Positions 23,694 to 64,000 of a DNA stretch of 64,000 bases are shown piece after piece. Made by a program: the position numbers and the translations under genes. Source of the DNA: an uncultured Clostridia bacterium (GTDB lineage Bacteria; Bacillota; Clostridia; TANB77; CAG-508). How positions within the stretch are numbered: position 1 is the first letter of the stretch; the number at the start of each line of letters is the position of its first letter. Below the pieces are notes generated by a model. It was not told the DNA's origin, made no database searches, and saw only the letters and a list, made by a program, of their open reading frames with translations. The stretch is taken from contig CALXKK010000001.1 in assembly GCA_944388935.1 (NCBI GenBank), positions 62,344-126,343 of the forward strand. Reading direction: 5' to 3'.

Positions 23694-23748
23694 ATGGGTT
23701 ATTGTATCATAAAAAATTTTTTATTGCCATACCTTTTTTTATTTTTTT

Positions 23749-23777
23749 GAACTCGAGGGACGGAGGTTAAAAGTTCA
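23749..23777 (+). repeat. REP-like hairpin repeat, copy A1 (variant GAACTCGAGGGACGGAGGTTAAAAGTTCA)
   Basis: Member of a 7-copy family in this window. Forms an inverted pair with A2, 17 bp away. Confidence 0.6.
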
Positions 23778-23794
23778 AAGGTTCACATAAAAAA

Positions 23795-23823
23795 TGAACT
23801 TTAAGGTCCGTCCCTAAAGTTCA
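23795..23823 (-). repeat. REP-like hairpin repeat, copy A2 (inverted); overlaps the stop codon of the VanY-like gene
   Basis: TGAACTTTAAGGTCCGTCCCTAAAGTTCA is the reverse complement of the family consensus. Confidence 0.6.
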
Positions 23824-24618
23824 ATTATTTTTTAAATATTCTACATATTCTTCTAAGCATAATCCTAAGTCTTTCATTTCTTTGGCATATTCTGGGCCTA
23901 CATATCTCCAATGCCATGGTTCATATTTTATTTGTGTTATGTCTTCTTTGTCTTTCGGATATCTTAGTATGAATCCATAATTTGCTGCATTTTCTACAAG
24001 CCATGGAAAAGCTGGCTCATCTTCGAATTCATTATCAACATTGTTAAAGTCCACCGCTAATCCTAAATTATGTTCGCTCCTGTATGGCTCTTCTATTCCT
24101 CTTAATGTAAGACTTCTTGCTTCTTCTTCTGTCTTTCCTTGTTCTAAATATTCTTGTATACTTTCTTCTATTAAACGTTTTTGTTTTTCTGGGCTCCTAT
24201 ATGTAGATTGTGCCCATATATTTTTTATTCCTGCTGCTTTCATATCTAGTATCATTTGCGTTAGGCTATCTATAGCTCTTGCATCGAATTGTCTTTCGTT
24301 ATCTATGTTTGCAAGTGGTGGAATATAATCTTCTGACATTTTATTTTCATAATTTACTAAAATTAATTTCCAATCATTTAATTTTCGCAAACTTTCTTCT
24401 GAAGTAACCTGTTCTACAATAGTATTATTATTGTCAATAATATTAGTTTCATTTGAAATGTTATTTGCCATAGCACCAACTTCCTTACTGTTTCCTAAAT
24501 TGTTTAATATATATACTAATATTATACTAACAATCATTATAATTGATACCACAATTCTATATATAAATATAATTTTATTACCTTGCTGTTTAACTTCCTT
24601 TTCTTCCACCATTCTCAC
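23821..24618 (-). CDS. D-alanyl-D-alanine carboxypeptidase, VanY/peptidase M15B family, membrane-anchored
   Basis: N-terminal TM helix, SEHNLGLAVDF (SxHxxGxAxD), EPWHWRYVG. Confidence 0.8.
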   Translation of the reverse strand: MRMVEEKEVKQQGNKIIFIYRIVVSIIMIVSIILVYILNNLGNSKEVGAMANNISNETNIIDNNNTIVEQVTSEESLRKLNDWKLILVNYENKMSEDYIPPLANIDNERQFDARAIDSLTQMILDMKAAGIKNIWAQSTYRSPEKQKRLIEESIQEYLEQGKTEEEARSLTLRGIEEPYRSEHNLGLAVDFNNVDNEFEDEPAFPWLVENAANYGFILRYPKDKEDITQIKYEPWHWRYVGPEYAKEMKDLGLCLEEYVEYLKNN

Positions 24619-38377: not shown

Positions 38378-38407
38378 ATTATAATATGTTTCATGTGTTT
38401 TTTACGT

Positions 38408-38420
38408 GAACTTTAGGGAC
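38408..38420 (+). repeat. Partial REP-like repeat, copy B (GAACTTTAGGGAC followed by local palindrome TAGGGAcaaTCCCTA)
   Basis: 5' half of the family consensus only. Confidence 0.4.
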
Positions 38421-38425
38421 AATCC

Positions 38426-41400
38426 CTATCTTTCATCTCTTTCATCACTTTCTTTTCTTATTTCCTCCATAACAGATTTCACCATCTGTCGTTTTTCTAC
38501 ACTTAATGATGACATATCTACTTGTGCATCTTGTGCTCCTATTTGTTTTAATGCTTTCTTCACTTGATAACGTATATGATTTTCCGCTTTTTGCTTTTGC
38601 TCCTCGGTTAACCCCTCTCTTAATGGTGAAGATAAAACATTTCCGATTTTTATTTTTTCATCATCTTGACTATAAATAATAGCCATTCTTGCAGTAGCCA
38701 ATACCCTCGTAGTATTTGGGTCAAGCCCATATTCTTCCGCTACAGTATTCATAAGTCTTTCAGATTTTTTAAGTTGTTCATCATCACCTGTTTCATTAAA
38801 ATATACTGTATTATTGTTTTCAGATTCTCGGTCCATTCTTCTTAATGTTAATAGCACTCTATCTGTCATATTTGTACTATCATACAAAGGAATATCATCT
38901 TGATGAACATATAAGTTTTCTTGCTTAGATTCTACAATTCCATCCCTTTCTGCAATTGTATATTGAATTTTTGCATCAGTATATGGATTTGGTAATCTTC
39001 TTGTAGATTTCACACCTACTGTATCACTTTCTTGATGTATAGTTTTATCCGATTTTATTGCACTCGCAATATCATTATATCCTAAGCCAATTGTTACTTT
39101 GCCTAATACTAATGAATCATATTGTTCTTGCGTAATATCTCCTTTTTTTAACAATTCTTGATATACTCTTTTGTCTTCTTCCATTAAATCTTGTGCTGCT
39201 TTTTTATAGACGCCTAAAACCTCTGCTGCTAAGCCTTTTCTTCCTTTATCAGGATGTTCTGTTTCATATAACCTAAAAATCCTATTGGGTATTTCTATAT
39301 TATCAAAACAGCCTGTGTATTGATTTCTCCAAAACCAACTTTGTGCAACCAATCTTCCTTCTTCATCTTTTACACAAAAAACTCTACCATCAGGGGATAC
39401 AACGCTATGCTCCATACTTGTTTGGCCAGCTCCATGTATTTCTTGGCAACAATCTGTAAGTGTTCCAATTGTTAATGCTAGTGGGTCATCACATCTAAGC
39501 ATTTCGTATGTATACCCATTAGTTTTTCCTTGTATTCTGGGAATACTAGAAAAATCCCTAGTTTCACCTTCATTAAATAGTTTTTGTATAGCTTCAAAAT
39601 CTTCTTGAGAATATCCAGCTATTTTGGCTTGTTCGGCAACTCCCTCATTACCAATATCAATATTAGAATACACTATACTTCTTATATATGCTTGTGCTAC
39701 GTCCCAAGTTAATTTCCTACCAGCATTTGTTCTAACAATATCCTTAAATTGTCTTTGCATTGTAGCAATATCTTTACTATATTCAGGATTTGACAATATT
39801 TCGTCACAATTTTCTACAAAAAATTTAACAAAGTCCGGATTATATTCCATTTTAAAAGAATCAAATATCTGATGAGCTTTAATTGGAGTTAAGATTCTGG
39901 GAAAATCTGCTTCCTCTAATATTCCTCTAACTGTCTTTGTTCTATTCTTGTCACTTTGTGCATTAAATGATAAATTATACTTTCCATCTTTTCCTATTTT
40001 ATATGCTTGTTCTAAAATTGTTTGTAGCTCTTTATTATTTCTATTATAGCTAATTGATTGCATTACTTGTTCATATTCTTCGGCAGATAAATCCTTTGGA
40101 AGTCCTGCAAATAATTCCATTGTCCTATTAAATCCTTCATTATCACCTTGGAATACTCCCATGCTATACGCTGCTTTTAAAAGTGCTGCTTTACCATCGT
40201 TATTACGATTATAAAAATCTATGGTCATTAATTTAGACCATTTTTTCCCATTTGCCAAGAAACTATCAATTTCTTCTTCTGGGAAATTTATCATAACAAC
40301 AAAATTAGGTAAAAATCTTCCACCTGTTGCTTTATACCAACTTTCCAAAGTGCTAACTCTATGGTAACTTACCATTTTATCAATAGTTACTGGATCTCTT
40401 GCTCCTAATTTCATTAATGTATCACTATCAAATTTTCTAAACAATTCGTCATAATTTGGCATAAATGCTAGCCTTATATCTTTTCCTTGTAAAAATTCTT
40501 TCCATTCCGGATATCTCTTTATTAATTCGAAATTTAATTTGATACTAACGTTAGTATCATGTAATTTATTATTATAATACAATGTTTTTAATAATTCTGG
40601 TGCCTCATTATCCAAAAACATCTCCGGACGTCTTTTCTTAAAAAAGTCAGGAATTGTTTCGATAAAAGGAGATTTTCTAGTTAAAATATTCTCCTCTATA
40701 TTTTGCTGTATTGCTCTTTCTTTATCTTGCTTACTTTGACCTTCCACAAAAATTCCAGCGTTAACACCTTCCAAAAATTCTCCGTACTTTTCTGCAAAAT
40801 ATATTATCTCTTGCTCTGTAAGTTTTTCCCACATTGGTCTTACTTCTCTTTGTCTTTGACCATATCTTAGTGGTTTGCATTTTGTATTTCCAAATCCTAC
40901 ACCAATATCTTTTGACAATAATATCTCCCTTAATTGTGGGTTCTGCCTTACATCTTCAAAAGTTAAATCTCCTGAATAAAACTTATTTCTTAATTTTTCA
41001 TCAACCTCTTCTGGAAGAAATAAGTCTGGATGCTTTTCTTTAAAACTTGATGGTAATTCTTCAAAATATACCATTCCCTTATCTTTTATTTCTCCATATA
41101 TAGCATCTTCAATTTTTTCTCTAATACTTTCAAGTGTAAAATCTCTTGAAATGGACAATGATATACTATCTAAGCATTTTCCATAGTCAGCACAAATCCT
41201 TAAGAACTCCTCTTGACCTATTTTTTCTATAACATATTTAGCCATATTTACCTTTTTTCCTTGTAATATTTGTATAAGTTCTGGATTTTGTCTGATATCC
41301 TCAGCACTCATATGTCCTCTATAAAATTTATTTTTTATTGAAACATTAACACCATCTATAAATATATCAGGATGCTCATCTCTAAAACTTCCTGTTATAA

Positions 41401-43892: not shown

Positions 43893-43917
43893 TTTATCTT
43901 TACACCTCATCTGTTTT

Positions 43918-43953
43918 GAACTTTGAACTTTGGGGACGGACCTTAAAAGTTCA
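43918..43953 (+). repeat. REP-like repeat, copy D (extended form TTGAACTTTGAACTTTGGGGACGGACCTTAAAAGTTCAAATATTATGTT)
   Basis: Near-identical over ~50 nt to copy E. Confidence 0.6.
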
Positions 43954-43989
43954 AATATTATGTTAATATTATCTAACATCTATTTTTAT

Positions 43990-44312: not shown

Positions 44313-45365
44313 TTATTTCTTTTCCATATTTTTTGTTTCTAAAAGTAATTTATCAAAATCTGATGTTATTTTTTGATGTTTGTTAAATTCGTTATATTCC
44401 TTTTCTGCCTTTTCCTCAGCCATTCTTCTAGAAATTTTTCCATTATCCTTTAATATATCATATTTTCTAAATTCCAAGAATTCATTAACACTTTTTGCAA
44501 ATTCCTCCATTGTGAATGTGTTTTCTCTTTCTACTAAATCTTCTATATAATCAAAATAACCAGATATCGCTCTTTCTAGTCTTTTTATTTGTTTTTCTTC
44601 TAAATAGTTTTTTGCTATCATTACATCTGATTTTAAAATTCTTCCATCTGGTGAGTTCTTCCATGTTGTTAATCCCATATTTTCTTTAGTATGATCTGCT
44701 TTTTGATATATGATTTCTGCTGCTGTATTTCCTGTTATTGCATAATGAAATTTATTTTGTATCATAGCATAAAATTTCTTTGTAATCTCTGAATCTTTAT
44801 CATAATCAATACTGCATTCTGCAAATATATCTGTTATCTGTTGCCAAATTCTTCGTTCGCTTGTTCTAATTGAACGAATTCTTTCTAAAAGTTCTTTAAA
44901 ATAATCTTTTCCAAATTTAGGTCCATTTTTTAATAATTCATCATTTAACACAAAACCTTTTTTTATGTATTCTTTTAATGTATTAGTTGCCCAAATTCTA
45001 AAGTCAGTAGCTTCTTTTGAATTAACTCTATAACCCACTGCAATAATAGCATCTAAACTATAAAAAGTTAATTCTCTTGAAACACTTCTATTTCCTTCTT
45101 TTTGAACTGTTCGAATTTTTCGAATAGTTCGATTTTCCTCTAATTCATGAGTTTCAAAAATCTCTTTTAAATGATAATTTATAGTATTTACTTCAACATT
45201 AAATAATTTTGACATCGATTTTTGAGTTAACCAAAAATCTTCATTGTCGTATAATACTTCTACAGATATACTTTCATTGTTTTTACTTTGATATATAATT
45301 AAATCTCTTAAATATTCTAATTTGCTCACCATTTCACACTCCTTTTTTTGTGTTTTGTCATTCAA
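44313..45365 (-). CDS. RhuM-family (virulence protein RhuM-like) protein
   Basis: FWLTQKSMSKLFNV...IRKIRTVQKEGNRSVSRELTFYSLDAIIAVGYRVNSKEATDFRIWATNTLKEYIKKGFVLNDELLK is a close match to the RhuM-family core. Confidence 0.75.
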   Translation of the reverse strand: MNDKTQKKECEMVSKLEYLRDLIIYQSKNNESISVEVLYDNEDFWLTQKSMSKLFNVEVNTINYHLKEIFETHELEENRTIRKIRTVQKEGNRSVSRELTFYSLDAIIAVGYRVNSKEATDFRIWATNTLKEYIKKGFVLNDELLKNGPKFGKDYFKELLERIRSIRTSERRIWQQITDIFAECSIDYDKDSEITKKFYAMIQNKFHYAITGNTAAEIIYQKADHTKENMGLTTWKNSPDGRILKSDVMIAKNYLEEKQIKRLERAISGYFDYIEDLVERENTFTMEEFAKSVNEFLEFRKYDILKDNGKISRRMAEEKAEKEYNEFNKHQKITSDFDKLLLETKNMEKK

Positions 45366-45375
45366 ATTTTCCCTC

Positions 45376-46416
45376 CTATTTTTTTATTAAATCTTTTGAA
45401 TAATAATACATATCAACACATTGCATATTTCCATCCCATAATTCTTCATTATAATTATCTATAAAGAAATTTTTTATTGTCTTTTCATATTTATCAAATC
45501 CTTGTTTAACATAGAATGGTATGTTATTTTCTGTTGTTCCTACAATCATATTTTTATATCTTGGCTTATAGTTATCTGCCAAATATTTTATCATTTTTTT
45601 GCCATATCCTTTGCCTCTGTAGTTTTCTTTAGTTGCTATGTTTTTTAACTCTACAGTATCATTATCAACCTTTGTTACCACAGAAACGCAAACAGGTTCA
45701 TCTTTATATGTTAATACAAACAAGTCCCCATCAGCTAAGTACTTTCTAACTATCTCTTCGCTTGGATCTGCCTCAAGAAGTAACTCTAAATATTGCTCCT
45801 TATTTTCTCTTTCTTTTCTTATATTAATAGAAGGGTTCACAGGTAAGAACTCAAAACCTTCTGGTAATTTTGGTGGTTGGAAATCCTCACCTAAATATCT
45901 ACCTCTCTCGGAAAAGATGCAACCACAATACTTTTGAATATACAAGCCTAATTCTCTGGCTTTTGCTTGTCCAACTTTAAATCCAACTCTAAAATCTCTA
46001 TACAAAAAGTCTAAACCATATTTTTTCGCAATCACTTCACCTAATTTTTTTATAACGTCATGTTTTTGATATGGACTTACTAAAAGTGTTGTAGTAATTG
46101 TATCAAATCCATGCTCCTTCGCATACTTTGCTGTTTGCTCCAAACGAACTGGATAACAATAATCTTGGCATCTTGTTTCCAAAGAATCTACTACATTTTT
46201 GCAAAACTTATCTAAGCCATAATCATCTTCGAAAATGGCTTCCACATTTATGCTCTTAGTATATTCTTTTAAGCAATCTCTTCTTGCCTTATACTCTGTA
46301 TATGGATGAATATTAGGGTTAAACCAATAAACTGTTGGCTCTATTCCTTCATCTCTTAGTGAATCTATGCAATATACACTACAAGGTGCACAGCACGTAT
46401 GCATTAATAATTTCAT
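45376..46416 (-). CDS. Fusion protein: epoxyqueuosine reductase QueH (DUF208) N-terminus plus GNAT acetyltransferase C-terminus
   Basis: MKLLMHTCCAPCSVYC is the hallmark QueH Cys cluster, with further Cys (CQDYC, CGC). The C-terminus ...ELKNIATKENYRGKGYGKKMI is a GNAT acetyl-CoA-binding motif. GGAGGAG SD lies 4 nt upstream of the ATG at 46416. The track ORF's first 39 aa are REP-derived. Confidence 0.65.
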   Translation of the reverse strand: MKLLMHTCCAPCSVYCIDSLRDEGIEPTVYWFNPNIHPYTEYKARRDCLKEYTKSINVEAIFEDDYGLDKFCKNVVDSLETRCQDYCYPVRLEQTAKYAKEHGFDTITTTLLVSPYQKHDVIKKLGEVIAKKYGLDFLYRDFRVGFKVGQAKARELGLYIQKYCGCIFSERGRYLGEDFQPPKLPEGFEFLPVNPSINIRKERENKEQYLELLLEADPSEEIVRKYLADGDLFVLTYKDEPVCVSVVTKVDNDTVELKNIATKENYRGKGYGKKMIKYLADNYKPRYKNMIVGTTENNIPFYVKQGFDKYEKTIKNFFIDNYNEELWDGNMQCVDMYYYSKDLIKK

Positions 46417-46429
46417 TTTTCTCCTCCTT

Positions 46430-46465
46430 GAACTTTGAACTTTAGGGACGGACCTTAAAAGTTCA
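46430..46465 (+). repeat. REP-like repeat, copy E (extended form), 3' flank of the RAYT gene
   Basis: GAACTTTGAACTTTAGGGACGGACCTTAAAAGTTCA followed by a partial second copy (GTGAACTTTTAAA). Confidence 0.6.
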
Positions 46466-46587
46466 AATATTATGTGAACTTTTAAATCAGTACCATTCCA
46501 ATCATTCCTATTTACCAATATTATTCCTTGCATGAATTCAGGTTATATCAGTAATTCATATACCTGCTCTTGACTTGTTCATCAACA

Positions 46588-47355
46588 TTATTCGTGTATC
46601 AATCTATGTATTTTTAATCTATTAACACCTATAATCTCTGCTATTTCCTTCTGTGTGAATCTGTATTTTTTATTCATAATTATAGATATTTCCTTTAAAT
46701 ATTTATTATCATATTTTAAAACGCTAATATTAATAATATTCTTTTTTCGTAAGAATTCATCTAGCACTTGTAATTTCAAATTATTTTTATCTTTTAAGTC
46801 TTCGTCATCCATAAAATTATAGTCAGTTGAATCTTTTATCAATATTGTATTTAAATCAATATTATATGTACTCAAAATTTTTAACACTTTATTTTTGTTT
46901 ATCAAATATTCTTTATTCTTAAATTCCTTATAACTTGAGAATTTGTATTCTGATTGATTGTTGCATATTTTCGCTTTTACCGGATTATTATGAATATAAT
47001 GTATACAATTTATCAAATATTTCCTAGATATAATTTCCTCAGACTTAAATCTATCTCTAAACACATATCCACATCTATCGTGATTTTTATTATAGTAGAT
47101 GGCATAACTTGTATTAACCTTTTTCATTAATTTAGAAACCAAATTTATATCTTGAGAATATACTAAAAAATGAGCATGATTATTCATAATACAGTATGTA
47201 ACTATGTATACATCAAAACTCTTTAGTTTTTCCTTTATAATTTTTAAATATACTTCGACATCTTTTTCTTTATTGAATATATATTCTCTATTTATCCCTT
47301 GTATCATAATGTGTATAAATTTAGAATTTATTTCTTTTCTTGCTCTTCGTGGCAC
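46588..47355 (-). mobile_element. REP-associated tyrosine transposase (RAYT; IS200/IS605-like Y1 HUH transposase, COG1943-type) with C-terminal HTH extension
   Basis: MPRRARKEINSKFIHIMIQGINREYIF N-terminus, HUH motif NHAHFLV, catalytic-Tyr helix IHYIHNNPVKA, C-terminal HTH FTQKEIAEIIGVNRLKIHRL. Flanked by inverted REP copies E and F. Confidence 0.7.
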
Positions 47356-47580
47356 GCAAAAACCTCCTTTAAAATATTAATTTTTGCCCCCACTTTTAAC
47401 TTAAAATTAATTTAAATTGACATTAATCTTATAAGTTTTTTCTTATGTGATGTATTATACCAAATTTATCATCTTATGTAAACATTAACCAGTTTATTAA
47501 CCATAATATTCCATTCTCTTGTTATTCAACAATTTTACCATTCTATTACCACATCATCATTATTTTTTATGTAACCCGAT

Positions 47581-47609
47581 GAACTTTTAAGGTCCGTCCC
47601 TAAAGTTCA
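47581..47609 (-). repeat. REP-like repeat, copy F (inverted), 5' flank of the RAYT gene; overlaps the last codons and stop of the membrane-protein gene
   Basis: GAACTTTTAAGGTCCGTCCCTAAAGTTCA is the reverse complement of the consensus. Confidence 0.6.
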
Positions 47610-49087
47610 TAAATGTCGAAAAAGTTTACTGTTCCTATCTTTTCTAAGTTTTCCCTTACGTATTTTATTACTTCCGTTGGTGTTTGCCAATTTAACGCAA
47701 TTTTATTATTTTTTATTAGTATTACAGCATTCTTCATATTTTTTATTCTTTCAATTTGTCCTTCTTCGCTGTTTTCTCCTAAATTTCCTTTTAAAAACAT
47801 GTCAAAGTCTTTATTGTATCTGTCTAGTGGTATCATATATACCGCAGCTTCTGAGTCTAAAATGTATACATCTTTATTTTCCTCTTGTATATATGCATCT
47901 ACTTCTATAATTCTATCCTGTAAAGAGGAAGTTATTGGAATGTTAGAAAAATGTTTTAATACTGATTTATCCGATGATGCATATAAATATATATCGTTTA
48001 TTGATTCTAATATTAATAATCCTATAAATGATATTGTTATTATGTTCATAAAATGTTCTATAAATATCGATACTTTTATGTTTTTTATTTCTTGAATACT
48101 TTTGCAAATATAATACAAAACCACCATAACTGTTGGTAGTGCAGCTATTCTAAAGTGTATATCATCTGATATTGGATATACCATAATAAACTGAGCTAAT
48201 GAAAATACAAATAGTATTAAATATTGAATATTATTATGTATTTTTCTTTGCTTCATATTTACTAAATTTGCAATTAACAACACAATTAAAGTAATTGGTA
48301 CTATTAACGCTACAAAAGCCATAAAATCCTTGCCACGTATAAGTTTTAAATATGATATTTTGTTTTGGAATGTTCCTATTCCTAAAACACAATAATCTAT
48401 AAAGCTTGACATTGAATTTGTTAAAAGTAAATATATAACAAAAATCACACATGGAATAAAAACTCCCACAACTCTGTATAAAACTGCTTTTGCGGTTTCT
48501 TTATCTTTTTTTTCTAGCAATAAATATAAAACAGTTATAGCAGAAATAATTATTCCTGTACTTTGCTTAAACAAAATAGTTATCCCAGCAAGTAAACCTA
48601 TTAAAATATTATATTTTGCACCAAAATTTCTATATTTAAGTTCAAAATAAATAAGTAATAATGTAACAAATAAAATTGCATAATTATAATCTATATAAAA
48701 ACTATCTTTTATAAATAAAAACAATAAAGCTGATGAAAATACTGACCATTTAGTATTTAATTTTAGTTCTTTCAAAATTTTATACGCTACAAAAATTATT
48801 CCAGCTCCTAAAAATGTAGAAACAATTCGCATAACAAATAATTCTTGGCCAAATAATTTTAAAATTCCACCAAGAATAAATGATAATAATGGTGTTTGCA
48901 ACATATTAAAATCTTTATATGGTAATAATCCATTTGATATATTTCTTGCGAAATTAAAATTCCATATTTCATCAAGATTTTCTAAATTTCTAGGCAATAC
49001 TGTAGCTGCAAATAATATTATTGTTATAATTATAAAAGATATATCTATTAATCTAGCTTTTAACTTTGCTTTAGTTTCCTCTTTCAC
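47600..49087 (-). CDS. Polytopic membrane protein, possible GT-C-like glycosyltransferase
   Basis: ~12 TM helices. N-terminal loop has NLENLDEIWNFNFARN and LPYKDFNMLQTPL, reminiscent of GT-C DE / HPPL-type motifs. Confidence 0.4.
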   Translation of the reverse strand: MKEETKAKLKARLIDISFIIITIILFAATVLPRNLENLDEIWNFNFARNISNGLLPYKDFNMLQTPLLSFILGGILKLFGQELFVMRIVSTFLGAGIIFVAYKILKELKLNTKWSVFSSALLFLFIKDSFYIDYNYAILFVTLLLIYFELKYRNFGAKYNILIGLLAGITILFKQSTGIIISAITVLYLLLEKKDKETAKAVLYRVVGVFIPCVIFVIYLLLTNSMSSFIDYCVLGIGTFQNKISYLKLIRGKDFMAFVALIVPITLIVLLIANLVNMKQRKIHNNIQYLILFVFSLAQFIMVYPISDDIHFRIAALPTVMVVLYYICKSIQEIKNIKVSIFIEHFMNIITISFIGLLILESINDIYLYASSDKSVLKHFSNIPITSSLQDRIIEVDAYIQEENKDVYILDSEAAVYMIPLDRYNKDFDMFLKGNLGENSEEGQIERIKNMKNAVILIKNNKIALNWQTPTEVIKYVRENLEKIGTVNFFDIYEL

Positions 49088-49106: not shown

Positions 49107-50111
49107 TTATTTATTGTATTCTATATTTAAATGTTCATATGCAGCAGGAAGCGCAATTCTTCCCCTTGGAGTACGAGATATAAAACCTATTTGCATTAAA
49201 AATGGTTCATACACATCTTCTATAGTCTCTATTTCCTCTCCTGTTGTGGCAGCTAAAGCTTCTATTCCAACAGGACCTCCTGCATATTTATTTATAATTG
49301 TAAGCAATATATTTCTATCTGTTTGGTCTAGTCCTAAATCATCTATTTCTAGCTTATTTAGAGCAATTTTAGCCATTTCTAGATCTACATCACCATTTCC
49401 TAAAACTGATGCATAATCCCTTACTCTTTTTAAAATTCTATTTGCAATTCTTGGCGTTCCTCTAGACCTTTTTGCAATTTCCATACTTGCTTTATCGTCT
49501 ATATTTACATTTAAAATTCCAGCAGATCTTTTTACAATTTTTTGTAAATCTTCTGGTTCATACAATTCCAATCTCTCAACAATTCCAAATCTGTCCCTTA
49601 AAGGAGTGGTTAAAGAACCCGCTTTTGTCGTTGCACCTATTAATGTAAATTTAGGCAAGTCCAATCTTATTGACCTAGCACTTGGTCCTTTTCCTATAAT
49701 TATATCTAAAGTATAATCTTCCAATGCTGGATATAATATTTCTTCTACACTCTTATTTAATCTATGAATTTCATCTATAAATAGGACATCAAATTCTGAT
49801 AAATTAGTAAGTAATGCTGCTAAATCTCCTGGCTTTTCTATTGCTGGTCCTGATGTAATTTTTATATTTGAATTCATTTCATTAGAAATAATATTTGATA
49901 ATGTAGTTTTACCAAGTCCTGGAGGTCCATATAAAAGTACATGGTCTAAAGGCTCCCCTCTTTTTTTGGCAGCTTCTATATATACTCTCATATTTTCTTT
50001 AACCTTAGTTTGTCCAATATATTCATCAAGTGTTTTAGGTCTTAATGAATTTTCTAATCTATTTTCTTCATCATTTATTAATTCCGGATTAATTAAATTT
50101 TCTTCGTCCAT
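49107..50111 (-). CDS. ruvB: Holliday junction branch-migration helicase RuvB
   Basis: [13 protein letters not shown] Walker A, FIDEIHRL Walker B, sensor motifs, winged-helix C-terminus. Confidence 0.95.
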
Positions 50112-50302: not shown

Positions 50303-51187
50303 TTAAACCCTAATCCACTCTTCTACCCATTCATCAGGTATCTTTAAATTTCCTTTTCCACAACCCATGTCTATATTAGGTTTATTTTTTCCGTGGTAAT
50401 CACTTCCACCACTTTTATAATATTTTCTTTCATTACATAAATTTACAAGATATTGAATCTGCTCTTCGAAAAATGTACTATGCATACATTCAATTCCATC
50501 AATATCGTATTTATCTAAGATATCATCTATTAATTGATACTTATCTTTTGCCCATTTATAGATAAATAAATGAGGTAAAAATACTAATCCTCCACACTCC
50601 TTGATAATCTTAACAGCTTCTTCTGTGCTAGGATAATCAGGCGTTTTATCTATATATAATGGATAATTTTGGTCTCCACAATATTTTTTAGAGAAAGCAT
50701 CAAATTCAGCCCAAAAATCTGCTGGAACCTTGGCCTGATTTTCTGGATGTTTTTTTATTTCGTTATAAATAGCTACACTTCCCCAACCATTTTTTGCATC
50801 CCAGTCGATTTTTTCTTTTGGATCCATTACAAGCCCCATTTGTACAGCCTTTTCATATTGAATGTTAAAATATTTTGTCTGTAACTTTTCTCTAGATTTA
50901 TCTTTATAATATTCAACTGTCCATTGTTTCATTTTCTTTGGGTCAAATTGATATCCTAATACCTCAATCAAATTTTTTCCATAACTACATTTTATCTCTA
51001 TTCCCGGAATTATTTTCCCTTTAAAATATTTATGTACATCTATTTTTTCTAGTTCTTCATATCCATTACAATTATCATGATCTGTAATAGAAATATAATT
51101 TAAATTTTTTTCTTGGGCCTTTTTTAATAATTCTATTATAGAATCTGACCCATCTGAATTTGTAGAATGCATATGTAAATCAATCAT
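50303..51187 (-). CDS. PHP-domain phosphoesterase (histidinol-phosphatase-like)
   Basis: MIDLHMHSTNSDGS and ISITDHD metal-binding His motifs of the PHP superfamily. Confidence 0.7.
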   Translation of the reverse strand: MIDLHMHSTNSDGSDSIIELLKKAQEKNLNYISITDHDNCNGYEELEKIDVHKYFKGKIIPGIEIKCSYGKNLIEVLGYQFDPKKMKQWTVEYYKDKSREKLQTKYFNIQYEKAVQMGLVMDPKEKIDWDAKNGWGSVAIYNEIKKHPENQAKVPADFWAEFDAFSKKYCGDQNYPLYIDKTPDYPSTEEAVKIIKECGGLVFLPHLFIYKWAKDKYQLIDDILDKYDIDGIECMHSTFFEEQIQYLVNLCNERKYYKSGGSDYHGKNKPNIDMGCGKGNLKIPDEWVEEWIRV

Positions 51188-52097
51188 TTCTTTCCTCTCC
51201 CACTATTGTATTTACTTTCACTTTTCTATCAGTAGTATTATCTTTATTTTCTAATTCATATAATGTATTTAATTCCTCAACATAGGGCATTAATGTAGGC
51301 GCAGATTCCGAAAAAACTGAATGTATCATTTCATACTGCATAGGAAATTTTCGCATAAAATCTCTTTTAAATGTTCTTCTGCCATATATAACAGCTTCGC
51401 TTGGACTTTTAAACTCTTGCCCTTCTGTAGTATAAAAAGCATTAGGTCTATTTTCTCCTCTTTTATATACAGTTGCATGGTCAAATAATCCTTGCTCTTC
51501 GAATTGCTTCAAAGTTATTATAAAATTATCATAAGAAGCATCATGTACACTTTTAGGAACCCATCTTGGTTCAGTATCACTTACTAATTGCATAGCATAC
51601 CTTAAAAAGGTAGAAGTATAACTTTCCAGTTTTGGAACAGCCATTAATTCTAAATCTATTTCGTAACCTGCTTCTTTATATTCTTTTGCCATTTTTACGA
51701 AACCTGATGTTGCTCTCATGGTCCCTTCATATATAATACTTAACTTATTATCTCTACAATAATCTCTAATTTCTTGACTTGCTCTATCTGCATCTGGTAA
51801 TAAGGCTAAGTGAATGTTTTCTCTATCCTGTTTATCTGCTACTTCAAAATTTGGATGCATTGATCTAACAACATCATAATCCGTAATTACTGCATTATAA
51901 TTTAATTGTTCATTTACAACTGGAGTCAATTTAGATTTTCCAGCTCCTGATTGTCCTGCTACAAAAACTAATCTTGGTTTTTTTTCTGGTTTCTTGCCTG
52001 TTGTAAAAAATAAATTAACTGAATGATAATATTGTTGATATTCTTCTTCTGTAAGTTTATATTTTGCTTGTAATACTTCTAATTCATCTTGTTCCAT
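51180..52097 (-). CDS. Zeta-toxin family kinase (UDP-GlcNAc kinase-type toxin)
   Basis: Walker A GQSGAGKS, SMHPNFEV (cf. QQHPNFDE), MAVPKLESYTSTFLRY (cf. MAVPKINSYLGTIERY), GLFDHATVYKRGE (cf. GLFSDIRLYNREG). Collinear with streptococcal zeta/PezT. Confidence 0.8.
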   Translation of the reverse strand: MEQDELEVLQAKYKLTEEEYQQYYHSVNLFFTTGKKPEKKPRLVFVAGQSGAGKSKLTPVVNEQLNYNAVITDYDVVRSMHPNFEVADKQDRENIHLALLPDADRASQEIRDYCRDNKLSIIYEGTMRATSGFVKMAKEYKEAGYEIDLELMAVPKLESYTSTFLRYAMQLVSDTEPRWVPKSVHDASYDNFIITLKQFEEQGLFDHATVYKRGENRPNAFYTTEGQEFKSPSEAVIYGRRTFKRDFMRKFPMQYEMIHSVFSESAPTLMPYVEELNTLYELENKDNTTDRKVKVNTIVGEERND

Positions 52098-61088: not shown

Positions 61089-64000
61089 TCAAATTATTCT
61101 TAAATAATCTGATGCAACAAAACCTTTTGTTCCATTATCAAAAATTACTAAATCCCACCAATGGTTATCATAATAATAAGAATCCTTTATTATGCGAGTT
61201 CCTGTTGTTCCATTTTTTAGACTTGCCAAAATAGAAGTATTCTTAGTGCTAGGTCCATTTCTCACATTAACCGTTGAACCAGTATTTACAATTACTCTCT
61301 CACTACAATTTGAAGGATCATCTACATATTGCAAATAATTACCTGAACAATATCCAATATTTCCTGTTGATGTAAAAACTTTGTGCCATCCGTTATCATA
61401 TCTTTCCATAGAAATTAGAATTGTTCCATTTTGTAATCTGCCTATATCAGCATATTGTTGGCTAGGTCCATCTCTAAGCACTAATGATCCACTTACTTTT
61501 ACATGCACATACCTTGGTTTAGAATCTGTTAAATTTGGTGCAACAACACTATTTCCTTGACCATTTGGCCTAACTGCTGGTGTGTTTGGCATATTCTCAT
61601 ATACTGGTATAATAAATTTAATTGCATTATCTAAAGTTCCTGTATCTACGTAAGCACTTCTAAATATTCTTGCTTCGCTATATGCAGCTGATAAATTTTG
61701 CATATATTGATGAGTATAGAAGCCTCCGGGACTATTTGGATTTACATCAAATTTATTTAAATACAATGTGTTCTGATTAGCATCCAAATATCCTTTTCTT
61801 ATAAATCTTATTCCTCCTTCAATTCCTTTTTGCATACTATCCCAACCTTCAGCTTTAGCTTTTGCTAAAGCTGTAGCGACATCATTTCCTACTACTGCAC
61901 CTATATTAAATGGATTAAAATATGTTTTACCATCTCCTCCATCCATATATATTGTATCTGCACCATATCGTCCCTGTTCTTGGAATAGTCTAGCAATAAT
62001 ATAATATGGGTTTACATTTTGATGCTTACAAGATATTCTAACATCCTCTGCAAAGTCATGTAAAAAAGTGTCATTTACTTGATACTGAATAGATTCTATT
62101 GTTGCTCCACTGTTTTCAAAATCCGATAAATCTACAAACTGAAAAACATCTATATCATTCAAAAAATTTCTGGTGTCCATAAAATATGCTATTCCATTAT
62201 AAGAAGCAGAAGCCCAATTTCCACTAACATAAGGGTTCGGAGCAATCCAATCTCCTTTATATACATTTGTATCTACTAAATTTGCAGTTCTATTTGCATA
62301 TTCATATTCTCCTTTAACAGCTGTATAAAAATCGATACCCGTATATAATATTTCAAATTGCCAGTTTGGATGAGCATTTGCTAATTTATCAACATTTTCA
62401 GCAATTCCTGGATATTTATTTGAATCTATGCTAACGCCTATACCTGTTTTTATAAAAACAAATCTCTGTTTTATATTTTTTTCATTATAATATATTTGAA
62501 TTTTCGAGCCATTTTCTATTGGGCCATTTATATCCAATGTTAGACTATAGTCATTAAGTGGTATTATTCCCATACTTCCATTACCATTGTCTCTAATAAT
62601 CCATTTTTGGGTATCATTGTCGTTCCATTCATATTGTATTACATCCGTTCCACTTGCCATATTATTATTTTTTACGGTTAAATATTTATCACTATGGCAA
62701 AAAGAAATTCTATAATATCCATTTACATATTGTATATTAAATTTTTGGGCTTTCATATTTAAATTTTCCCAAATTTGTACTCTTCCATTATTTTCTGTAT
62801 TACTAGCAGATGCTTCTATTACTATATTCTTATTTGCCATTGGAGCTATTTGATAGATGCCACTTACTATTGTTCTCTCACTTTTACTTTCTATTTTTTC
62901 TAACTTAAACTCTTGTCCAGCTCCTCCACTTTTTTCATAAACTTGAATATTCGTTCCATTGGCTGAACTAGAATAACGTGCATCTAAATATAGTGAATCT
63001 CTTTTAGATATTATGTTGTAATTTCCAAATTCATTTTTCTTTATTATCCATTTTTGATTATCATTTCCTCCATTATTCTCCCATTGGTCAACATTTGATT
63101 CGTTTCCTCTTCCCACAACATCTATTCTTTTTCCAGAATGTATTGGGACTATTTCATAATAACCATTTCCATCATAAACTAAATTAAATTGTTGTTGAGC
63201 TACATTTGCATAACTCCATATGTGCACATTAACTCCATTCCCTAACTTGCCACCATCTACAGTTAAACTCTGAGTTAGAGCATTTGCTAAGACAATTTTA
63301 TAGGTTCCCTCTTCTACAGTTTTTTCTCCTATTGGCACTTCACTATCTAATATTTTAAATTTCTGATTATCTTGCCCTGTAAAATTTTCTACACACAATA
63401 AGTCACAATTTGCTCCATTTCCTTTTACTGATAGATATAATCCATTAATTTTCGAAATAATATAATAATACCCACCTCCTGCATCTTTAACTATCCATTT
63501 TTGGTTATCGTTTCCTCCATTGTACTCCCATTGGTCTATCAAAGTTCCACTTTCTACTCCTGAACCAACTACATCTAATAATTTTCCAGATTTTATATTT
63601 TTTATTGTATAATATCCTTCTTCATTGTAAATAAATTTAAACCTCTGTTGGTCCACCATTATATAATCCCATAAATTTATATTTGCTCCATTTTCTATTC
63701 TTCCTCCATCTACTCCAACTGCTCTTCCACTTAATTTTGTTATTATCTTATTTGTAGTATCACCCTGAATTGTTTCTGTACCTTTTTCATCTATTCTTTC
63801 TATAAAAAACTCTTGTGTCTTTGCATTAGTCCCAGTTTCTACATTAACATTTTCATTATTTGCTCCTTTTCCATTTTCTAAGTTTAAATATAACCCATTT
63901 AATTTTGACCTTATCTTATATGCCTCTGCCCCTTTTTCTATTACCCATTTTTGATTAGCATGTCCTCCGTTATACTCCCATTGGTTAACATTAGTTCCAC
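61089..64000 (-). CDS. Cell-wall hydrolase: ricin-B lectin (beta-trefoil) repeats, GH73-like N-acetylglucosaminidase, two SH3b domains; 5' end beyond the window
   Basis: Repeated QxW/(D/A)NQKW lectin motifs. Central YYIIARLFQEQGRYGAD and YTHQYMQNLSAAYSEA resemble GH73 catalytic motifs. C-terminal SH3b-like repeats (VLRDGPS...GWHKV; NVRNGPS...HWWDL). Hand translation shows the frame is open upstream of the Met at 63659 through to position 64000. Confidence 0.7.
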   Translation of the reverse strand, partial: GTNVNQWEYNGGHANQKWVIEKGAEAYKIRSKLNGLYLNLENGKGANNENVNVETGTNAKTQEFFIERIDEKGTETIQGDTTNKIITKLSGRAVGVDGGRIENGANINLWDYIMVDQQRFKFIYNEEGYYTIKNIKSGKLLDVVGSGVESGTLIDQWEYNGGNDNQKWIVKDAGGGYYYIISKINGLYLSVKGNGANCDLLCVENFTGQDNQKFKILDSEVPIGEKTVEEGTYKIVLANALTQSLTVDGGKLGNGVNVHIWSYANVAQQQFNLVYDGNGYYEIVPIHSGKRIDVVGRGNESNVDQWENNGGNDNQKWIIKKNEFGNYNIISKRDSLYLDARYSSSANGTNIQVYEKSGGAGQEFKLEKIESKSERTIVSGIYQIAPMANKNIVIEASASNTENNGRVQIWENLNMKAQKFNIQYVNGYYRISFCHSDKYLTVKNNNMASGTDVIQYEWNDNDTQKWIIRDNGNGSMGIIPLNDYSLTLDINGPIENGSKIQIYYNEKNIKQRFVFIKTGIGVSIDSNKYPGIAENVDKLANAHPNWQFEILYTGIDFYTAVKGEYEYANRTANLVDTNVYKGDWIAPNPYVSGNWASASYNGIAYFMDTRNFLNDIDVFQFVDLSDFENSGATIESIQYQVNDTFLHDFAEDVRISCKHQNVNPYYIIARLFQEQGRYGADTIYMDGGDGKTYFNPFNIGAVVGNDVATALAKAKAEGWDSMQKGIEGGIRFIRKGYLDANQNTLYLNKFDVNPNSPGGFYTHQYMQNLSAAYSEARIFRSAYVDTGTLDNAIKFIIPVYENMPNTPAVRPNGQGNSVVAPNLTDSKPRYVHVKVSGSLVLRDGPSQQYADIGRLQNGTILISMERYDNGWHKVFTSTGNIGYCSGNYLQYVDDPSNCSERVIVNTGSTVNVRNGPSTKNTSILASLKNGTTGTRIIKDSYYYDNHWWDLVIFDNGTKGFVASDYLRII

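Follow-up and report, generated by a model that had tools for sequence, protein, structure and literature searches.

A REP-associated Y1 (HUH) enzyme flanked by inverted hairpin repeats in uncultured gut Clostridia: a probable domesticated transposase with its own repeat family

Introduction

A 64-kb stretch of DNA from an uncultured gut Clostridia bacterium (hereafter the window) contains a gene for a Y1 transposase-like protein that lies between two inverted copies of a short hairpin repeat (REP), with further copies of the repeat scattered elsewhere. The question raised by this locus is whether the gene and the repeats form a system in which an enzyme maintains its own repeat family, or whether they are better read as a mobile element, as host regulatory structures or as neighbors by accident. 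The pairing of a domesticated transposase with a private repeat family, known as the REP/RAYT relationship, has so far been studied almost only in Proteobacteria. Our analysis indicates that the locus probably pairs a REP-associated Y1 (HUH) enzyme, domesticated, present in a single copy and inherited vertically, with the repeat family cognate to it. The computed support comes from the protein, through its fold and catalytic residues; from the repeats, through the conservation and orientation of the flanking arrangement, covariation in the hairpin stems and dispersal of copies; and from the single copy number and synteny of the gene.

Results

The RAYT-like gene (46588..47355, minus strand) encodes a protein of 255 aa, in which a Y1 HUH nuclease domain (residues 1-145; 46921..47355, minus strand) is followed by a helical C-terminal region (residues 146-255) terminating in a helix-turn-helix (HTH; residues ~229-254; 46594..46671, minus strand). 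A ribosome-binding site, AAGGAGG (47363..47369, minus strand), read directly from the sequence, lies 7 nt 5' of the GTG start codon. A promoter-like site recognized by consensus match (TTTACA, 17 nt, TG-TATAAT; 11/12 matches; 47454..47482, minus strand) is positioned between the upstream REP and the gene.

An initial sequence-only reading had identified the protein as a Y1 transposase. The motifs MPRRARKE, NHAHFLV and IHYIHNNP on which it drew are all found in the translation of the 255-aa ORF, whereas an N-terminal YHxxxxG motif is not, the strand reading FIHIMIQG instead. The search chosen beforehand as the one that could overturn this identification, with the Pfam Y1_Tnp model (PF01797), gave 43.4 bits against a cut-off of 23 over residues 14-124, and the same model was matched by 112/112 homologues. 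The HUH motif, H60-A-H62 (codons at 47170-47178), falls within NNHAHFLV, and the catalytic Tyr120 (codon at 46996-46998) falls within CIHYIHNNP, in the Y-x3-NP form. Across the 112 homologues, H62, Y120, N124 and P125 never vary, and H60 reaches at least 90% conservation; in the YKFSSY serine motif (residues 137-142), Y137 does not vary either, while conservation of S140, S141 and Y142 is at least 90%. These features suggest that the protein is a functional Y1 enzyme. Published hallmarks of RAYTs include a 100% conserved threonine near the N-terminus and an NP(L/V)(R/K)xG motif (PMC2817692). Within the first 30 residues, the positions that are invariant or nearly so in the 112 homologues (M1, P2, R3, A5, R6, F13, H15, M17, Q19, G20, E24, Y25, I26 and F27) include no threonine, and NPVKAK in the window protein fits 5/6 positions of the second motif, the final Gly being missing, while NPVKAG is present in some relatives (P0039, P0058 and P0060).

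By its NCBIfam scores and its best fold match, the protein is nearer to REP-associated enzymes than to IS200. The NCBIfam model REP_Tyr_transpos (NF047646) matched it over its full length with 56.8 bits (E 2e-15), which is below the equivalog cut-off of 80, while the transpos_IS200 model gave only 17.4 bits against an equivalog cut-off of 55. The AF2 model of the protein (pLDDT 88.6, with a helical C-terminal region) found its best PDB fold match in E. coli TnpA_REP (4er8; E 6.9e-6, TM 0.68 normalized to the target), with IS608 and ISDra2 TnpA at ~3e-4, and all 22 fold matches at E <= 0.001 were TnpA_REP, ISDra2, IS608 or IS200 transposases. In sequence searches against the PDB, the N-terminal domain alone returned only noise and the family profile matched 4er8 weakly (E 0.064), so the link to TnpA_REP rests on the fold search together with the NCBIfam score. 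The C-terminal HTH, also proposed from the sequence, is clear across the family but weak in the window protein alone (Sigma70_r4, E=0.16; HTH_19, E=0.2; residues 229-254): Sigma70_r4 was matched by 42/112 homologues, others match HTH_3, 7, 11, 23, 24 or 28, and the family profile matches a DeoR-type HTH.

The two flanking REPs, TGAACTTTAGGGACGGACCTTAAAAGTTCA at 46436-46465 (plus strand) and 47580-47609 (minus strand), are 100% complementary over 30 nt. The sequence-only reading had thus rightly placed the gene between a forward copy (E) and an inverted copy (F), but the distances are 122 nt beyond the stop codon for copy E and 224 nt ahead of the start for copy F, rather than 123 and 226 nt. 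The 28-nt REP core has three matches in the window at <=3 mismatches (0.00 expected from 100 dinucleotide shuffles), strict GGGAC hairpins number five (0.135 in shuffles), and as single-stranded DNA each REP copy forms a hairpin with a folding energy of -7.1 to -8.4 kcal/mol (z -3.8 to -4.4). Copy F (47580..47609, minus strand) carries GGGAC on the coding strand of the RAYT-like gene; its first bases are also the last codons and TAG stop of the PMT_2 glycosyltransferase ORF that lies upstream (47600..49087). Copy E (46428..46478, plus strand; core 46436-46465) has a partly duplicated 5' arm (TTGAACTT / TGAACTTT) and stops 19 nt short of the likely queH start (ATG 46417-46419).

Three to four further REP copies lie away from the gene, for a total of 5-6 in the window. 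Copy D (43916..43966, plus strand; core 43924-43953, one mismatch) forms a 51-nt direct repeat with copy E that is 96% identical. At 23747..23824, a variant REP (plus strand, 23747-23778) and a REP (minus strand, 23795-23824) converge in a REPIN-like doublet that folds as one long hairpin (-19.6 kcal/mol, z -4.6); the copy at 23821 supplies a stop codon, as does the copy at 47600. A degenerate REP-like copy, TGAACTTTAGGGACAATCCCTATCTTTCA, occurs at 38407..38435 (plus strand). Neither the window nor most relatives have a GTAG adjoining the REP stems, and the exact 28-mer core had no match in representative genome contigs. The initial label for this locus, a REPIN-RAYT arrangement, therefore survives as far as a REP-associated Y1 enzyme is concerned, but the flanks are single REPs, a REPIN-like doublet lying instead at 23747-23824, and the enzyme is not a canonical GTAG RAYT.

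Hairpins near other homologues, which had been named beforehand as the second test of the association, were found in most of the best 80 homologue loci, all from gut Clostridia MAGs and each from a different assembly. Inverted flank matches of >= 19 nt were present in 67/80 loci, compared with 0/80 for shuffled flanks and 9/80 for same-orientation matching. Their orientation is fixed: the upstream GGGAC is on the coding strand in 55 loci and in the opposite orientation in 2, while the downstream GGGAC is on the other strand in 44 loci and in the opposite orientation in 2. The apical GGGAC comprises the only invariant bases of the hairpins, within a core that reads AGGGACGG in the window, GGGGACAC or GGGGACAG in many relatives, and GGGGACGG or GGGGACGT in others. 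The stems covary between species, with compensatory changes in 7/7 stem pairs; among hairpins pre-selected at a folding energy <= -3 kcal/mol, paired stem cells made up 82.5% (46.4% in shuffles) and the covariation score was 0.853 (0.24 in shuffles, 0.13-0.37 in slid controls). REP similarity follows protein similarity (Spearman 0.39, Mantel p 0.001), a correlation to which shared phylogeny could partly contribute. In several genomes, "stuttered" tandem units of a 5' arm plus GGGAC(G) precede full hairpins, with junctions 0-1 nt 3' of GGGAC.

These hairpins could alternatively be mainly regulatory or structural elements of the host (mRNA stabilizers, attenuators or protein-binding palindromes) that spread by recombination or slippage, with the protein acting as an HTH duplex binder or autoregulator. 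The family-wide conservation of the HTH is consistent with such a role, as are the REPs at gene ends and in a 5' leader, the closeness of copy E to the queH start and the stop codons supplied at 47600 and 23821, and the stuttered half-repeats could come from replication slippage. However, the HUH, Tyr and N-P residues are invariant or nearly so in the 112 homologues, a conservation that points to an enzymatic role still being maintained. The stems, moreover, are free to change in sequence provided that they still pair, and the asymmetric GGGAC alone is fixed, a pattern consistent with a recognized target that is a folded single strand and not a duplex operator. Upstream and downstream copies, being on opposite strands, would also yield different RNAs. 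Furthermore, a terminator scan detected no intrinsic-terminator-like sites and Rfam gave no match, leaving the RNA-element and terminator readings without support. A primarily regulatory or structural host role for the hairpins appears improbable.

The repeats are also dispersed away from the gene. In 730 kb of homologue loci, 66 REP copies are separated from the homologue by >320 nt on its upstream side or >470 nt on its downstream side (~0.9 per 10 kb), whereas shuffling gave 4 in 849 kb. In metagenome contigs the gene was present on just 2/80 loci, so 114/120 REP matches fell on loci without it, where copies form doublets and 75-76-nt arrays. The complete replicon of Acetoanaerobium noterae contains a single homologue, 33% identical and with GGGAC hairpins on its flanks, and at least 28 REP places. 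No GGGAC hairpins were found in the flanks of the homologue in the "phage" record MT835484. The copy numbers, tens per genome and 5-6 in 64 kb (the count for the source organism covering the window), are far under those of classical REP families; the comparison data are mostly MAG contigs, which may collapse or break at repeats. Separately, a RhuM gene located by REPs was considered as a REP-mediated cassette, which is unsupported as stated: the duplicated segments differ between two related MAGs, a ~90-nt duplication around the gene taking in the REP in L004 and the segment in L003 being the queH 3' end without the REP.

A second alternative treats the 1.17-kb REP-gene-REP unit as an autonomous IS200/IS605-type insertion sequence that has the two flanking hairpins as its ends, in which case the scattered hairpins would be solo ends or MITE-like derivatives. 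The protein shares its Pfam family with IS200 transposases, inverted repeats bound the unit, distant N-terminal relatives occur on plasmids and are annotated as transposases, and a Logan contig of 1162 bp (L001) has both its ends inside the two REPs. The contig ends, however, can be attributed to the effect of repeats on de Bruijn assembly. At IS200/IS605 ends, the two subterminal hairpins differ from each other and lie on one strand (structures 2vjv and 2xm3), unlike the inverted copies that flank the gene here, and the transpos_IS200 score is far below its cut-off. The RAYT-like gene is the sole Y1 gene in the window, as it is in complete A. noterae, and never occurred twice among the best 80 loci. 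Moreover, the gene order ruvB-glycosyltransferase-gene-queH is kept in five related MAGs from different species (L002, L003, L004, L006 and L008) although the enzyme is only 49-76% identical in them (glycosyltransferase 62-83%, neighbors mostly 74-98%), and this conserved position counts against an autonomous element. An insertion sequence is therefore already disfavored, and we consider it very unlikely. That REPs, which are indeed present between other genes of the window, stand beside a Y1 gene by accident is already refuted by the recurrence of the arrangement in 67/80 homologue loci with orientation ratios of 55:2 and 44:2, compared with the ~0.9 copies per 10 kb found elsewhere.

Discussion

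The locus adds a well-supported member to a known kind of system, a domesticated transposase and its repeats, and is not new in kind. It leaves the general picture of REP/RAYT systems unchanged but extends the association of such an enzyme with a private repeat family to very AT-rich, uncultured gut Clostridia, and it accounts for a repeat family that breaks metagenome assemblies of these organisms. The cultured relative A. noterae, with one gene and at least 28 REPs, offers a system for testing recognition and cleavage.

The conserved features are consistent with a mechanism in which a REP, single-stranded at a replication fork or after extrusion, would fold into its hairpin, the Y1 domain reading the shape of the stem and the base sequence of the invariant apical GGGAC(G/A). 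Together with a metal held by H60/H62, Tyr120 would cut the strand and form a 5'-phosphotyrosine link, after which the cut strand would be rejoined to another REP end. Such strand transfer could make, duplicate or move REP singlets, inverted doublets and ~75-nt tandem arrays, and the Y1 enzyme may in this manner have spread the repeats. The C-terminal HTH might add duplex-DNA binding or autoregulation. That the enzyme binds and cleaves REPs and transfers strands, where it would cut and what the HTH would do are all inferred from the protein and repeat features described above.

More speculatively, the HTH-bearing Y1 clade might recognize and cut its substrate in or beside the hairpin loop. The apical rather than stem-foot position of GGGAC, and the stuttered-copy junctions 0-1 nt after it, hint at this possibility, which we nevertheless regard as doubtful. 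Cutting of this kind, if true, would resemble that of rolling-circle Rep proteins, would differ from the foot-guided cutting of IS608 TnpA and E. coli TnpA_REP, and would constitute a third recognition strategy among domesticated Y1 enzymes.

Among published classes, TIRYT/TIRtron (Di Nocera et al. 2013, PMC3733652), which is treated as the same class as TnpA_Y1 subclass 2.1 (Quentin et al. 2018, PMC6006769), appears to fit best, judging by the HTH at the C-terminus of the protein, its serine motif and the GGGAC core of the repeats, a placement made by published description rather than by side-by-side reference sequences. The system shares with this class a TnpA_REP-like Y1 core, the serine motif after the catalytic helix, the HTH and the Y-x3-NP form, a class 2 RAYT/TnpA_REP signature at the catalytic tyrosine (PMC6006769). 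It also shares the position of the gene between inverted repeats with a G-rich core, and repeats that are moderately abundant and at times in dimers or clusters. The TIRYT flanking-repeat consensus, GGGG[AT][CG]A[CG] (PMC3733652), is fitted exactly by GGGGACAC and GGGGACAG of the relatives and at 6/8 positions by AGGGACGG of the window. Unlike in TIRYT/2.1, however, the flanks here are compact hairpins with an apical conserved motif and covarying stems, and the hosts are uncultured gut Clostridia; no Clostridia entries were found in the supplements of PMC6006769. Since no REP-like structures were reported next to genes of the HTH-bearing subclass 2.1 (PMC6006769), our data suggest that true hairpin REPs, with their conserved motif at the apex, can occur in this branch.

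The E. coli-type RAYT/TnpA_REP with GTAG-tagged REP/BIME (Nunvar 2010, PMC2817692; Ton-Hoang 2012; 4er8; Corneloup 2021, PMC8266576) provides the best structural match and resembles the present system in being single-copy, located between inverted REPs, faster-evolving than most of its neighbors and co-evolving with REPs that form singlets, inverted doublets and arrays. The Clostridia enzyme differs in its structural-alignment identity of 13%, its score under the NCBIfam equivalog cut-off, its extra HTH tail of ~110 residues, the missing N-terminal Thr and NPVKAK in place of NP(L/V)(R/K)xG, and its REPs have an apical GGGAC rather than GTAG at the stem foot and number in the tens rather than the hundreds. 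The score below the equivalog cut-off, the missing GTAG and the lack of a conserved N-terminal Thr together show that this is not a canonical GTAG-REP RAYT.

RAYT Group 1 (Bertels et al. 2017, PMC5581495), likened here by its published description, is widely distributed, including in Clostridia, with flanking 16-mers at ~12 per replicon, and has modest REP numbers in common with the present system. Group 1 has some IS-like traits, with 6% duplicates and 1.2% on plasmids (PMC5581495), whereas the clade described here looks strictly single-copy and syntenic. With the IS200/IS605 TnpA proteins (IS608, ISDra2) the enzyme shares the HUH/Y1 fold and chemistry and, as predicted here, recognition of DNA hairpins, but those elements are mobile and multi-copy, and they encode short proteins of ~130-150 aa that lack an HTH.

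The Y1 gene and its flanking hairpins

The window has a single Y1 gene (46588..47355, minus strand; 255 aa, GTG start), and it lies between two exactly inverted copies of a short GGGAC hairpin repeat (REP), as the sequence-only reading had observed: TGAACTTTAGGGACGGACCTTAAAAGTTCA (copy E; 46436-46465, +) 122 nt past the stop, and its exact reverse complement (copy F; 47580-47609, -) 224 nt before the start. The distances in that reading were off by 1-2 nt. A ribosome-binding site (AAGGAGG, -) stands 7 nt ahead of the GTG, and a promoter-like site with a good match (TTTACA, 17 nt, TG-TATAAT; 47482-47454, -) falls between the upstream REP and the gene. Neighbouring genes encode RuvB (49107..50111), a PMT_2 glycosyltransferase (47600..49087) and a QueH-GNAT fusion (45376..46419); the minus strand carries most long ORFs of the window (27.9% G+C), including all genes surrounding the Y1 gene. 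Just past ruvB, a zeta-toxin family gene (136 bits; 50303-52097, -) overlaps the beginning of a PHP-domain gene.

The 28-nt REP core has three matches at ≤3 mismatches in the window versus none in 100 dinucleotide shuffles, and every copy forms a DNA hairpin, with folding energies of -7.1 to -8.4 kcal/mol and z about -4. With stop codons in five of its six frames, the REP is excluded from gene interiors. The internal TAG of copy F (47600-47609) is the stop of the glycosyltransferase ORF, and the TGA opening the copy at 23795-23824 (23821-23824) is that of ORF 23821..24618.

Conservation and dispersal of the hairpins

The same arrangement recurs at most of 80 homologue loci, each taken from a different assembly among species-representative genomes (uncultured Clostridia-type MAGs throughout), so that the hairpins are indeed found beside other RAYT homologues: in 67, the upstream and downstream flanks match each other in inverted orientation over at least 19 identical bases (median 29), versus 0/80 in shuffled controls and 9/80 for same-orientation matching. 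These matches are hairpins in which no bases are invariant except GGGAC, located at the upper end of the 5' arm and within the loop, while stems vary by species (e.g., GAACTTT/AAAGTTC, GAGACA/TGTCTC, TTGCCA/TGGCAA, GCACAT/ATGTGC, GAGTCAAAA/TTTTGACTC, CTGTTTTT/AAAAACAG). Among hairpins pre-selected at a folding energy ≤-3 kcal/mol (113 distinct copies passed), a 44-sequence alignment has compensatory changes at 7/7 consensus stem pairs, with 82.5% pairing cells (46.4% shuffled) and a covariation score of 0.853 (0.24 shuffled, 0.13-0.37 with slid partners). The REPs keep a fixed orientation relative to the gene: the upstream one carries GGGAC on the coding strand at 55 loci (opposite at 2), the downstream one on the non-coding strand at 44 (opposite at 2). 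REP similarity grows with protein similarity, from 0.42-0.45 below 45% identity to 0.92 above 80% (Spearman 0.39, Mantel p 0.001), a relationship to which shared phylogeny could contribute.

The cultured Acetoanaerobium noterae encodes a full-length homologue (33% identical) with GGGAC hairpin flanks in the same arrangement. At five loci (L032, L051, L062, L052 and L072) the core deviates from GGGAC (GGTTCCGGG, GGGCC, GGGTC), which could help map the protein residues that read it. A 70.8-kb record from human faeces labelled "UNVERIFIED Bacteriophage sp." (MT835484.1) holds a full-length, 29%-identical homologue near its end (1185-1922), with no GGGAC hairpins found in the flanks.

The REPs do form a dispersed family, numbering tens per genome, not hundreds. 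The window holds five strict GGGAC hairpins (23747+, 23797-, 43925+, 46437+, 47581-; 0.135 in shuffles) and a degenerate copy at 38407; the convergent doublet at 23747-23824, which folds as a single long hairpin (-19.6 kcal/mol), is REPIN-like. Gene-distant copies (>320 nt upstream or >470 nt downstream) number 66 in 730 kb of homologue loci (0.9 per 10 kb), versus 4 matches in 849 kb of shuffled control, and in the complete 2.63-Mb A. noterae replicon a single homologue is accompanied by at least 28 REP places. A degenerate pattern of the GAACTTT-type REP matched at least 120 stretches in metagenome contigs; just 2 of the 80 loci so retrieved (568 kb, 120 matches) encode a homologue, one of them (L158) reading REP-doublet, gene, REP-doublet. 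In these 80 loci, copies are arrayed in tandem with a period of 75-76 nt or paired convergently at a spacing of 67-78 nt, and 13 copies are ≤60 nt from a contig end. A Logan contig with an identical Y1 protein begins and ends inside the two REPs, which is how repeats break assemblies. At about 2750-2860 of L162, just downstream of a RhuM-family gene, an inverted doublet of a second REP type (TTGCCA...GGGAC...TGGCAA) shares a contig with GAACTTT-type REPs, suggesting two REP families in one genome and perhaps two cognate enzymes.

Protein family and relation to known systems

An HMM search bore out the Y1-transposase identity (Pfam Y1_Tnp, 43.4 bits, cut-off 23). NCBIfam REP_Tyr_transpos matches the full protein at 56.8 bits (E 2e-15), below its equivalog cut-off of 80, and transpos_IS200 scores just 17.4 bits. 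About 1,470 homologues were found; the 120 listed are, with few exceptions, ~255 aa long and derived from gut metagenomes or Clostridia MAGs. H62, Y120, N124 and P125 are invariant in 112 aligned homologues (H60, S140 and S141 ≥90% conserved); the Y-x3-NP signature that marks TnpA_REP-like class 2 enzymes (PMC6006769) is therefore present. Nunvar et al. give an N-terminal Thr and an NP(L/V)(R/K)xG motif as RAYT hallmarks (PMC2817692): no such Thr is conserved across the 112, and the motif position reads NPVKAK here and NPVKAG in some relatives. The YHxxxxG motif previously read near the N-terminus is instead FIHIMIQG.

A confident AlphaFold model (pLDDT 88.6; 112-sequence alignment as input) has as its top PDB match E. 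coli TnpA_REP with a bound REP hairpin (4er8; E 6.9e-6, 143 columns, target-normalised TM 0.68), ahead of the ISDra2, IS608 and IS200 transposases (E about 3e-4). The C-terminal region (residues 146-255) is helical, with an HTH at its end. Support for this HTH, also proposed earlier, is weak from the window's protein by itself but emerges over the family, whose profile matches a DeoR-type HTH; Sigma70_r4 is matched by 42/112 members, and others match HTH_3, 7, 11, 23, 24 or 28.

The system behaves like a RAYT/REPtron. The earlier RAYT reading is thus supported for a REP-associated Y1 enzyme with inverted hairpins but not for a GTAG-REP RAYT: the system scores below the equivalog cut-off and lacks both the GTAG tag and the N-terminal Thr, and is therefore not to be filed with canonical E. 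coli-type RAYTs. The published description of TIRYT/TIRtrons, whose flanking repeats share GGGG[AT][CG]A[CG] (PMC3733652), matches it in HTH tail and serine motif; the GGGAC core agrees with that consensus at 6 of 8 positions in the window and fully in many relatives. Such features support placement in an HTH-bearing, GGGAC-type (TIRYT/subclass 2.1-like) branch. Quentin et al. equate TIRYT with TnpA_Y1 subclass 2.1 and report no REP-like structures adjoining subclass 2.1 genes (PMC6006769), whereas the genes studied here clearly have them; REP-like hairpins beside HTH-bearing Y1 genes are a refinement of the known picture, not a new kind. Di Nocera et al. describe TIR families as self-complementary, moderately abundant, and present in dimers and clusters (PMC3733652), and in Clostridia Bertels et al. 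report Group 1 RAYTs flanked by 16-mers of modest abundance (PMC5581495).

Inheritance and possible mechanism

The order ruvB-(glycosyltransferase)-gene-queH is repeated at five loci (L002, L003, L004, L006, L008), where neighbours are mostly 74-98% identical, the glycosyltransferase 62-83% and the Y1 protein just 49-76%. The gene thus conforms to what is published on RAYTs (PMC2817692, PMC5581495): present once, inherited vertically and evolving fast. An insertion sequence would be expected to behave in the opposite way.

By homology with characterised enzymes (4er8; PMC8266576), the Y1 protein would bind the REP folded as single-stranded DNA, with base-specific recognition of the invariant GGGAC and shape-based recognition of the stem; strand cutting and rejoining by Tyr120 and the HUH-bound metal would generate and move REP units, and duplex binding or autoregulation may come from the HTH. 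Stems that vary freely while still pairing, and a motif that is invariant but asymmetric, are more in line with a recognised hairpin than with a duplex operator. At L020, L049, L061 and in A. noterae, full hairpins follow "stuttered" tandem repeats of the 5' arm and GGGAC(G); the junction is 0-1 nt past GGGAC in 7/13 clear cases. Such half-REPs stand at L020 1020 and 5864; L049 3096, 5841 and 5958(-); L061 5910(-); and L082 2292, 6281, 19894 and 36548(-). They may record cleavage and rejoining beside the loop or, alternatively, simple slippage; loop-proximal recognition and cleavage by the Y1 enzyme is a tentative and rather doubtful reading of these repeats. At 46428-46443 in the window, a stutter duplicates the arm only.

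A RhuM-family gene nearby (Pfam 360 bits; 44313-45365, -) keeps 83-94% DNA conservation across genomes whose Y1 proteins are just 40-76% identical, and its position around queH differs between genomes (L003 8456-9405; L004 6895-8085; L029 276-1302 and 4823-5536; L056 1-600; L162 2941-3999). At L004 a ~90-nt segment that includes the REP and the queH ribosome-binding site stands on either side of it, as two identical direct copies, and at L003 a 113-nt duplicate of the queH 3' end comes after it; in the window, a 51-nt direct repeat (REP copies E and D) brackets queH, RhuM and a small ORF. The gene looks to be moving horizontally, inserting with ~100-nt target duplications, and is not clearly dependent on REPs. 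Elsewhere in the window, three to four tandem repeats of ~447-450 nt (62576-63992; 67-87% identical), inside an 856-aa ORF (61089..63659, -) and past it, are probably a repeated protein domain.
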